Below the pieces are notes generated by a model that was given only the letters and a program-made list of their open reading frames with translations, did not search any database and had not been told where the DNA came from. The translations under genes and the position numbers were made by a program. A stretch of DNA of 39,217 bases from a virus (taxonomy: Duplodnaviria; Heunggongvirae; Uroviricota; Caudoviricetes): IMG/VR virus record IMGVR_UViG_2684623171_000001, one strand, 5' to 3'. Positions 37,373-37,486 of the stretch are shown piece after piece (the stretch's first letter is position 1; each line of letters starts with the position of its first letter).

Positions 37373-37486
37373 TGTTGATGACTTTTCAATCTATTTGTTG
37401 TATCAATTAAACAAATCGAATCGATCGTTTTTGTCGATCGATTGCATGAGAAAGGCATCAACAACAAAGCAGGAGGTTATGCGGTC

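Follow-up and report, generated by a model that had tools for sequence, protein, structure and literature searches.

Mom-type modification is toxic and gives phage DNA resistance to many restriction enzymes, and its silencing is therefore a classic problem. In phage Mu, Dam and OxyR govern the promoter Pmom, which is itself a poor, C-dependent promoter (PMC3378877, PMC2909390). Does another Mu-like prophage hold its com-mom operon under the same gate? The question was raised by a first-pass annotation of a viral DNA stretch of 39,217 nucleotides (IMG/VR record IMGVR_UViG_2684623171_000001; the whole stretch is called the window here), which had pointed to a pair of GATC sites and nested palindromes just upstream of the com ribosome-binding site and had suggested that the methylation-gated control of Mu mom is conserved.

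Genomic setting of the com-mom operon

The window is a Mu-like prophage with transposase-sized ORFs at its left end and a right prophage boundary near 38506, the latter placed by comparison with the annotated insertion in locus L002. The com gene (37487..37687, plus strand; start codon ATG at 37487) encodes a 66-aa zinc-ribbon translational activator (Pfam PF10122 Zn_ribbon_Com, 1.9e-12) that is 46% identical to Mu Com, and it is preceded by a Shine-Dalgarno sequence, AGGAGG (37471..37476, plus strand), which was read from the sequence and is conserved in relatives. The DNA modification enzyme gene mom (37641..38378, plus strand; Pfam PF25680 Mom, 4e-77; phrog_1384) overlaps the 3' end of com, and its DNA is approximately 71% identical to mom of Mu, D108 and SfMu. 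All parts of a Mu-type com-mom operon were found: a gene for a Com zinc ribbon runs into the beginning of a Mom-family gene, and the pair occupies the right end of a Mu-like genome. A homologue of the late activator C lies at 9800-10225 (39% identical to Mu C, Pfam Mor family), and an endolysin gene comes after it. No gin gene is present upstream in the prophage.

Of 5426 complete E. coli genomes, 391 carry the segment 37216-37700 in identical or near-identical form, and many of these carriers are O157:H7 or O145:H28. E. coli is known to possess Dam and OxyR, and both host factors should be available where this element resides. An Rfam search returned nothing relevant. A minus-strand ORF at 36908-37372 (PGAP hypothetical protein; phrog_26524) is reduced by frameshifts to 14-137 aa in close relatives; we therefore treated it as a non-gene and dropped a reading of the interval as a divergent promoter region.

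The GATC pair and its inverted repeat

Reading the sequence placed the two GATC sites at 37423-37426 and 37436-37439, as had been reported, within the strings AATCGAATCGATCG (37414-37427) and TCGATCGATT (37434-37443), which were likewise correct. Their position just upstream of the com ribosome-binding site was also right, with the second repeat arm ending 27 nt 5' of the com Shine-Dalgarno sequence. The repeat finder returned a perfect 9-bp inverted repeat, AATCGATCG / CGATCGATT, at 37419-37427 / 37435-37443 with a 7-nt loop. The nested palindromes are thus present as sequence, but we attach no extra meaning to them, because the hairpin is a by-product of a symmetric half-site (see below) that ends in two self-complementary CGATCG motifs.

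By themselves, the GATC pair and the palindrome are not beyond chance expectation. The whole window holds 128 GATC sites, slightly below the 153.6 expected from shuffles, and several close pairs occur among them. The five GATC sites found within 177 bp (37266-37439) are not significant, as random placements gave as many in 23% of cases, and the palindrome pattern, allowing up to three mismatches, was present in 12 of 100 shuffles. It is context that raises the GATC pair above chance: the exact 13-bp spacing (GATC-N9-GATC) has a single occurrence in the window, it lies at most 64 bp from com, and an identical 13-bp pair recurs upstream of com in nearly all enterobacterial com loci collected, as well as in agn43 and in Mu.

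We considered whether the palindrome acts as RNA, that is, as a stem-loop of a long com leader in which CACCUCC (37357-63), an upstream anti-Shine-Dalgarno sequence, would hide the ribosome-binding site of com and so control com translation or mRNA stability. A fold of 37350-37500 (-42.8 kcal/mol, z = -4.15) does pair the com Shine-Dalgarno sequence with 37358-63 and leaves the palindrome as an apical hairpin, with complementary leader arms at 37363-85 / 37451-73 and 37355-63 / 37472-80. The palindrome hairpin alone, however, is ordinary for its composition (-11.4 kcal/mol, z = -1.2), and the same hairpin potential is found at agn43 (-12.8 kcal/mol) and at Mu (-9.1 kcal/mol), there upstream of the known promoter. 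Furthermore, the anti-Shine-Dalgarno sequence is mutated in close relatives (CACCGCC, CACCTAC, CACCGCTA) with AGGAGG uncompensated, the whole 5' arm of the leader is missing from L004/L045-type prophages, and a transcript start upstream of 37355 is unsupported. Covariation is impossible for the hairpin itself, since both arms are fixed as CGATCG. The long-range leader model was rejected because its anti-Shine-Dalgarno sequence is neither conserved nor compensated, and we hold it very unlikely that the palindrome works as RNA.

A predicted two-part OxyR operator

OxyR binds two half-sites as a tetramer. For reduced OxyR, the canonical centre-to-centre distance between half-sites is 32 bp, and at opvAB, where half-sites lie at -148/-116 and -75/-43, the functional ones match 7-10 of the 10 consensus positions (PMC4856963). 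We scanned with the OxyR half-site consensus ATAGnTnnnAnCTAT, using two half-sites at an offset of 31-32 bp and a score out of 20; a separate scan used a 22-bp offset.

The window carries a two-part match, ATTTGTTGTATCAAT-N16-ATCGTTTTTGTCGAT, at 37393-37438, with a score of 14 (7+7) and an offset of 31 bp. Predicted OxyR dimer half-site I (ATTTGTTGTATCAAT, 37393..37407) matches the consensus at 7/10 positions; it contains no GATC, and reads CAAT (ATCAATT) where Mu, agn43 and the P2-like modules carry GATC1. It is followed by a 16-nt spacer (TAAACAAATCGAATCG, 37408..37423), which contains an AATCG direct repeat and has the same length as in Mu and in the P2-like com modules. Predicted half-site II (ATCGTTTTTGTCGAT, 37424..37438) again matches 7/10 positions and is bracketed by the GATC sites at 37423-37426 and 37436-37439. 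The upstream half-site, 37393-37407, had been absent from the first-pass annotation.

In the 31-32 bp scan, only two positions of the 39-kb window, 37393 and 7296, reached a score of at least 14/20. With the 22-bp offset, all four window positions scoring at least 13 fell in 37371-37402; in local dinucleotide shuffles, a score of 14 arose in 0.24% of trials and four such positions never did. The half-sites are weak at 7/10 each, with G for A at consensus position 10 of half-site II, and the OxyR consensus is AT-rich, as is the region scanned. The validated Mu site (ATAGAAAACGACGAT-N16-ATCGGTAATACAGAT) nevertheless has the same score of 14 (7+7) and the same offset of 31 bp. Scores at the other sites were 18 for P22 gtr and 16 (8+8) for agn43, each at offset 32, and, each at offset 31, 16 (8+8) for the L056 type, 15 (7+8) for the L005 type, 14 (7+7) for both L004 and L059, and 13 (6+7) for L101. 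At every enterobacterial com locus scanned, the register of the best two-part match was the same, and the GATC pair formed its 3' half.

The GATC-bracketed half-site has a recognisable form of its own. The two P22 gtr pairs (GATCGgTaacAaCGATC and GATCGcTtgtAtCGATC), agn43 GATC-II/III (GATCGtTtatAtCGATC), Mu GATC2/3 (GATCGgTaatAcAGATC) and the window pair (GATCGtTtttGtCGATC) all fit ATAGnTnnnAnCTAT, with ATCG/CGAT in place of ATAG/CTAT, and share the form GATCGnTnnnRnCGATC. Two features that define this class of operator were found in the window: two OxyR-like half-sites at an offset of about 32 or 22 bp (37393-37407 and 37424-37438), and GATC inside a half-site, here as two sites bracketing half-site II versus three sites in Mu and agn43. 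From its sequence, the GATC pair looks like the promoter-proximal half of a two-part Dam-sensitive OxyR-type operator.

The same palindrome could instead be read as a minus-strand intrinsic terminator, which would shield the inside of the prophage from antisense transcripts coming in at its right end. On the minus strand, a scan flags the 9-bp stem together with the CGATTTGTTT that follows it, and the equivalent palindromes of L005 and L056, with T-rich tails, are flagged as well. Against this, the AT-rich stem has little stability (-10.3 kcal/mol, z = -1.6), the T-tract begins 2 nt after it and is interrupted, and agn43 has the same palindrome without a T-rich tail. A terminator would also leave the 13-bp GATC spacing, half-site I and the match to an OxyR operator unexplained, and we give this reading almost no credence.

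Conservation among com loci

We collected 107 com loci from genome and viral collections and measured GATC positions relative to the com ATG. The sites lie at -64 and -51 in the window type, at -65 and -52 in the L056 type (including the Citrobacter locus L006), at -82, -64 and -51 in P2-like com-methyltransferase prophages (L005 type), at -109, -91 and -78 in Mu, and at -107, -89 and -76 in L101; the Haemophilus, Acinetobacter and other non-enteric loci have no GATC cluster. A pair at -64/-51 or -65/-52 is therefore found in three lineages with diverged flanks, and the GATC-pair module persists between flanks that otherwise resist alignment. When 20 sequences representing four diverged lineages were aligned, they shared an invariant block, CGAtCg..T..CGATCgAT, in which the T is consensus position 6 (37429).

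A comparison of 13 distinct close variants gave 24 variable positions in 37378-37470, which are linked in a few haplotypes and are therefore not independent events. None falls in half-site I (0/15) or half-site II (0/15); the variation lies in the spacer (5/16, including a 1-nt deletion) and in the left (6/15 nt) and right (12/27 nt) flanks. Fixed half-sites with a free spacer and free flanks are the pattern expected of a two-part protein-binding site, and the element appears to be conserved as a unit in this sense, its half-sites constrained and its spacer free. Unlike the window, the collected com loci of Haemophilus, Neisseria and other non-enteric bacteria have no GATC cluster upstream; judged by sequence, the Dam/OxyR operator is confined to enterobacterial lineages among the com loci collected.

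This pattern bears on the suspicion that the element is a functionless relic of the gin 3' end and an old Mu regulatory region, conserved only because the relatives are close. ATCAATTAA (37402-10) does resemble the last codons and stop of Mu gin, in a prophage without gin upstream. Variation is strongly non-random, however, with 0 of the 24 variable positions in the half-sites, and the module is kept where the flanks of a lineage can no longer be aligned, which makes a relic extremely unlikely.

Comparison with Mu mom

In Mu, the region upstream of com reads cGATCgaatcaattaaatcGATCggtaatacaGATCgATTATgccccaATAAcc...ttttttAAGATagtggcgaattgatgcaaaGGAGGtgagATG. Comparison showed that window 37402-37444 aligns to its GATC2/GATC3 part with an equal 13-bp spacing; the local alignment score was reached by 3.7% of shuffled queries. 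The two elements are alike in being homologous regions that lie upstream of overlapping com and mom genes at the right end of a Mu-type genome, and in having 15-bp half-sites, a 31-bp offset and a 7+7 consensus score. What was observed directly is the anatomy of the sequence, its homology to validated sites and its agreement with them in geometry, and the conservation pattern above.

The arrangement around the operator differs. Mu has three GATC sites, spaced 18 and 13 bp apart, with GATC1 ending half-site I, whereas the window has two, with CAAT at the place of GATC1. The distance from GATC3 to the com ATG is 51 nt in the window versus 78 nt in Mu, i.e., 27 nt closer. In Mu, the operator lies upstream of the C activator site, which we take from the work of Nagaraja and Hattman to be TTAT-N6-ATAA, downstream of the GATC sites, and the interval between GATC3 and com contains a T-run and a -10 sequence, TAAGAT. 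The Mu C-site and promoter segment had no significant counterpart in 37216-37490 by local alignment. The Mu site also overlaps the end of gin, a gene that the window prophage does not have. With GATC3 only 51 nt from the com ATG and the operator only 32 nt from the Shine-Dalgarno sequence, there is no room for the Mu order, and the Mu-type Pmom layout of OxyR site, C site, poor -35/T-run/-10 and short leader was not found in the window.

The proposal of Mu-like methylation-gated control thus divides into two parts. The core idea of a Dam-sensitive OxyR-type site has good support from the sequence, but the arrangement of Mu is not kept, and the Mu layout that the first-pass annotation implied does not fit the spacing upstream of com. 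We regard its interpretation as partly supported, seemingly right in substance and incomplete.

Position of the promoter

A consensus scan returned no plus-strand sigma-70 promoter between 37140 and com. With only 32 nt between the end of the operator and the com Shine-Dalgarno sequence, overlap with the core promoter is unavoidable, a further point of difference from Mu, where the operator stands upstream of the C activator site. The candidate that we call Model A (37378..37406, plus strand), which is purely a predicted promoter, consists of ATGACT (37378-83), a 17-bp spacer and TATCAA (37401-06), with a predicted start near 37413. All 13 variants keep both hexamers and the length of the spacer, whose sequence changes, and 37378 is also the exact point from which the L004/L045-type prophages are homologous. 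Model A is weak, with 8/12 matches and a -10 sequence without T at position 6, and was missed by the consensus scan. In its geometry, half-site I lies over the -10 sequence and half-site II at about +12 to +26.

A second placement is suggested by other com modules. The P2-like L005-type module has a predicted promoter, TCGATA-16-TATCAT with an extended TG (TGtTATCAT), that overlaps GATC2 and GATC3, and the L056 type has TATACT at the place homologous to the L005 -10 sequence. The window reads TGAGAA (37447-52) at the homologous position, and we disfavour a -10 sequence there, since 4/6 of its positions vary in close relatives. Model A is the better candidate.

One other placement was rejected, a Mu-like Pmom at 37321-37350 (CACCACC...TTTAAGTAAAT) fed by the three upstream GATC sites 37266, 37301 and 37312. 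The resemblance to the eye is not significant, as shuffled queries reached its alignment score in 52% of trials. Some relatives have lost GATC 37266, and in the L045/L046 type other DNA takes the place of the whole segment.

The lack of a visible good sigma-70 promoter suggests activator dependence, and the palindrome might be bound by a protein of the phage itself, whether the late activator C (9800-10225) or another regulator, without any part for OxyR. Mu C binds a dyad just downstream of GATC3. Mu mom requires C (PMC3378877), and the window encodes a C homologue with 39% identity and a Pfam Mor family match. C should act at several late promoters, however, while the motif is unique in the window even at three mismatches, and it is therefore not a recurring box of the phage late activator. 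No C site was located in the window. None of the 16-mers from 37370-37470 was found again upstream of late genes, and the block between C and lys that is conserved in the phage family has no significant similarity to the com upstream region and nothing similar to the palindrome. The same GATC-pair module is furthermore found in P2-like prophages with a different late activator (ogr adjoins) and in the chromosomal agn43 operator. With the dyad centred at 37431, an activator-dependent start would also fall inside the com Shine-Dalgarno sequence. A phage protein acting here in place of OxyR is, in our judgement, distinctly unlikely.

The GATC sites could alternatively be read without OxyR by the host. 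Methylation inside the promoter would then alter RNA polymerase binding directly, or SeqA would bind the hemimethylated pair; conservation of GATCGAT could also reflect another GATC-reading protein such as SeqA. The two GATC sites lie within or beside the core promoter in every model, and in the L005 type GATC2 overlaps the predicted -35 sequence and GATC3 lies in the promoter spacer. SeqA is an ancillary factor at opvAB (PMC4856963), and SeqA mutants change the switching bias of agn43 (PMC13337833). Action of Dam alone or of SeqA, however, gives no reason for half-site I, which contains no GATC, to be invariant, for the offset to stay at 31 bp, for the inner flanks to be conserved (G at consensus position 4, C at position 12) or for T to be invariant at position 6 across lineages. 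We judge such action unlikely.

Comparison with agn43, P22 gtr and other com modules

Among the known Dam-sensitive OxyR sites, the phase-variation operator of agn43 (flu) in E. coli has a layout closely similar to that of the predicted window operator. Its half-site TCGATCGTTTATATCGATCGAT is nearly identical to TCGATCGTTTTTGTCGATCGAT of the window, and both elements have two parts, with an offset of 32 bp in agn43 versus 31 bp in the window. The agn43 promoter (TTGTCC-17-TAGAAT) lies at 284-312, half-site I at 306-320 and the annotated 5' end of IsrC at 318. If Model A is correct, the window would resemble agn43, with half-site I over the -10 sequence and half-site II just downstream of the start. 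Unlike the window, agn43 has three GATC sites, half-sites that score higher (8+8) and a sigma-70 promoter that can be recognised; its operator also controls a chromosomal adhesin, with heritable ON/OFF switching and without a second layer of the Com type. Phase variation has not been demonstrated for mom (PMC2909390).

The gtr operator of Salmonella phage P22 matches the window in the arrangement of the GATC sites: it is prophage-borne, has half-sites of the form GATCGnTnnnAnCGATC and, as in the window, carries a 13-bp pair within a single half-site. The two GATC sites of each pair (-110/-97 and -46/-33) are 13 bp apart and fall within a single OxyR dimer half-site. Once the DNA has been Dam-methylated in vitro, OxyR no longer binds, even if only one of the two occupied half-sites contains GATC (PMC2909390). 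By this analogy, two GATC sites in one half-site could suffice in the window, whereas Mu and agn43 use three. P22 gtr differs in having half-sites A, B and C, on which OxyR can take up either of two positions, activating from one and repressing from the other. The window has a single two-part site backed by conservation; a further match, at 37371, is not conserved in L045-type relatives.

Modules led by com, in which a methyltransferase replaces mom, have been described as FluMu hin1523, Pnme1 and phage B3 (Drozdz et al. 2012, PMC3299994). As in the window, a com homologue immediately precedes and overlaps the DNA-modification gene in these modules. Within our own collection, com precedes Mom in the window, a C5 methyltransferase in L002 and an N6/N4 methyltransferase in L005.

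Proposed mechanism

Taken together, these comparisons make it probable, in our view, that com-mom is controlled at its core promoter by a Dam-sensitive OxyR operator. That OxyR binds here, that methylation affects its binding, in which direction it regulates and where the promoter lies are inferred; sign and mode of regulation rest on analogy because there is no convincing sigma-70 promoter near the operator. Literature searches returned no binding, methylation or methylome, OxyR or expression data for this element in the prophage.

In the proposed scheme, the 46-bp two-part operator (37393-37438) would be bound by host OxyR in its reduced, non-stress form, with one OxyR dimer per 15-bp half-site and GATC sites at both ends of half-site II. 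When both GATC sites are fully methylated by Dam, OxyR would be excluded and com-mom transcription would be possible. On unmethylated, and probably also on hemimethylated, freshly replicated DNA, OxyR would bind, shield the GATC sites from Dam and block transcription. The operator most likely covers the -10 sequence and the start site, as at agn43; because it overlaps the core promoter in either placement, exclusion of RNA polymerase is the likely mode of repression. Com would then activate mom translation, as in Mu.

The proposed scheme makes testable predictions at precise positions, namely A37424, A37437 and half-site I (37393-37407). Furthermore, the OxyR model predicts two non-methylated GATC sites in STEC strains.

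Implications

We regard the proposed operator as a plausible extension of known biology, that of the Mu, agn43 and P22 gtr operators, and not as a surprise. The compact layout, with the operator on the promoter, is common to several enterobacterial com modules and, from the sequences compared, looks like the commoner one, with the inserted C site of Mu as the exception.

Related operator-com modules also precede unrelated methyltransferases in other prophages. A more far-reaching reading, which we offer as speculation and hold to be unlikely, is that the operator and com form a portable epigenetic cassette that places promiscuous DNA-modification enzymes (Mom, a C5 methyltransferase, an N6/N4 methyltransferase) under heritable Dam/OxyR ON/OFF control at the core promoter. 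If this were true, a subpopulation of lysogens would express the enzyme, given a self-sufficient sigma-70 promoter (as in the L005 type, and possibly in the window under Model A), and the outcome would be prophage-borne, phase-variable genome modification that pre-arms progeny phage or host against restriction.

The sequence comparisons suggest that the Dam/OxyR gate extends beyond Mu, in the form of a conserved, compact module. The prophage family that carries it is present in approximately 7% of complete E. coli genomes, O157:H7 and O145:H28 among them.

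A methyltransferase gene in place of mom downstream of com

The window (37100–37654) was compared with com locus L002 (LC727895.1, 3115–4600), which is found in Mu-like phages sitting inside Stx prophages. Identity between the two is 95.7% over the regulatory region and com, and this homology stops approximately 14 nt inside mom (MGNR... versus MGNK...). The L002 gene following com encodes a 350-aa C5-cytosine DNA methyltransferase (Pfam PF00145, 2e-42), replacing Mom. In this comparison the predicted two-part Dam/OxyR-type operator (37393–37438), com (37487–37687) and the translation-initiation region together behave as one cassette. 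The annotated insertion end in L002 also placed the right end of the prophage near 38506 (...CGCCGCGCTATA; region 38380–39217); the sequence to its right holds part of a minus-strand ORF, encoding a membrane-transporter-like protein, that continues past the window end and was probably disrupted by prophage insertion.

Features upstream of com

We examined the minus-strand ORF at 36908–37372, annotated by RefSeq/PGAP as a 154-aa hypothetical protein and matching phrog_26524. It was rejected as a gene, as its frame is shortened to 14, 56, 99, 106, 135 or 137 aa in close relatives; by this comparison the ORF is probably over-called. A 55-aa minus-strand ORF with two CPAC motifs (MKEPVCPACK...CPACS; 36908–37075) differs between the window and L002 by a 1-nt indel adjoining the start codon, yet each of the two retains a start in frame; its sole Pfam match was sub-threshold (Trm112p-like, 0.005). 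This ORF may be a genuine gene for a small zinc-ribbon protein, oriented divergently to com.

On the plus strand, a promoter-like site (TTTACA-18-TAGGAT; 37110–37139) is followed downstream by a strong terminator-like hairpin of 13 pairs (37186–37215) and then a T-rich tail; the stem of the hairpin is retained in L002 with a changed sequence (CCCAGAATAG...CTATCTGGG). The interval 37110–37222 may encode a small RNA of approximately 75 nt; nothing in Rfam matches it. Three more GATCs lie at 37266, 37301 and 37312, the middle one at the centre of a 16-bp perfect palindrome, TAAAATGATCATTTTA (37295–37310), and the first is overlapped by the −10 element of a minus-strand promoter-like site (TTGACT-16-TAGGAT). 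GATC 37266 is missing in some relatives, and the entire 37266–37315 segment is replaced in prophages of the L045/L046 type. Closer to com, a segment containing CACCTCC (37355–37385) is extensively complementary to the com Shine-Dalgarno region (37451–37480; fold z = −4.15), and conservation of this complementarity was absent among relatives.

GATC content and related sites across the window

The whole window contains 128 GATCs versus 153.6 expected from dinucleotide-preserving shuffles, a mild depletion, with at least 128 found in 99 of 100 shuffles; long GATC-poor runs occur, for example at 4225–8431 and 31975–34405. Apart from the predicted operator, a score of 14/20 for the two-part OxyR consensus is reached in the window only at 7296–7342 (offset 32). 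Separately, ATGAGAAAGGCRTCA is present at 952–968, shortly before the transposase gene begins (972), and again at 37445–37461 within the leader of com (14/16 identical), a sharing that may be due to chance.

com-methyltransferase modules in P2-like prophages

In the P2-like prophages L005 (NZ_CP027447.1, 1390–2421) and L062–L086, com is followed by an N6/N4 DNA methyltransferase gene (Pfam PF01555), and the module adjoins ogr and hok. Its operator has three GATCs with the 18/13-bp spacing of Mu, and a predicted promoter (TCGATA-16-TGtTATCAT) overlaps GATC2 and GATC3. Some natural P2-like variants have partly lost the operator (approximately −90 to −45 relative to the com ATG): in L008 a 31-bp stretch separating the GATCGAT repeats is missing and one GATC is left, L084 and L087 are GATC-free (aaatcaatt), and in L069 GATC2 reads GAAC. 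From their sequences, these four alleles may be derepressed or unregulated. Because of the three-GATC operator, the Mu spacing and the predicted promoter over GATC2/GATC3, the P2-like com-methyltransferase prophages are candidates for methyltransferase expression in the lysogen under a Dam/OxyR switch.
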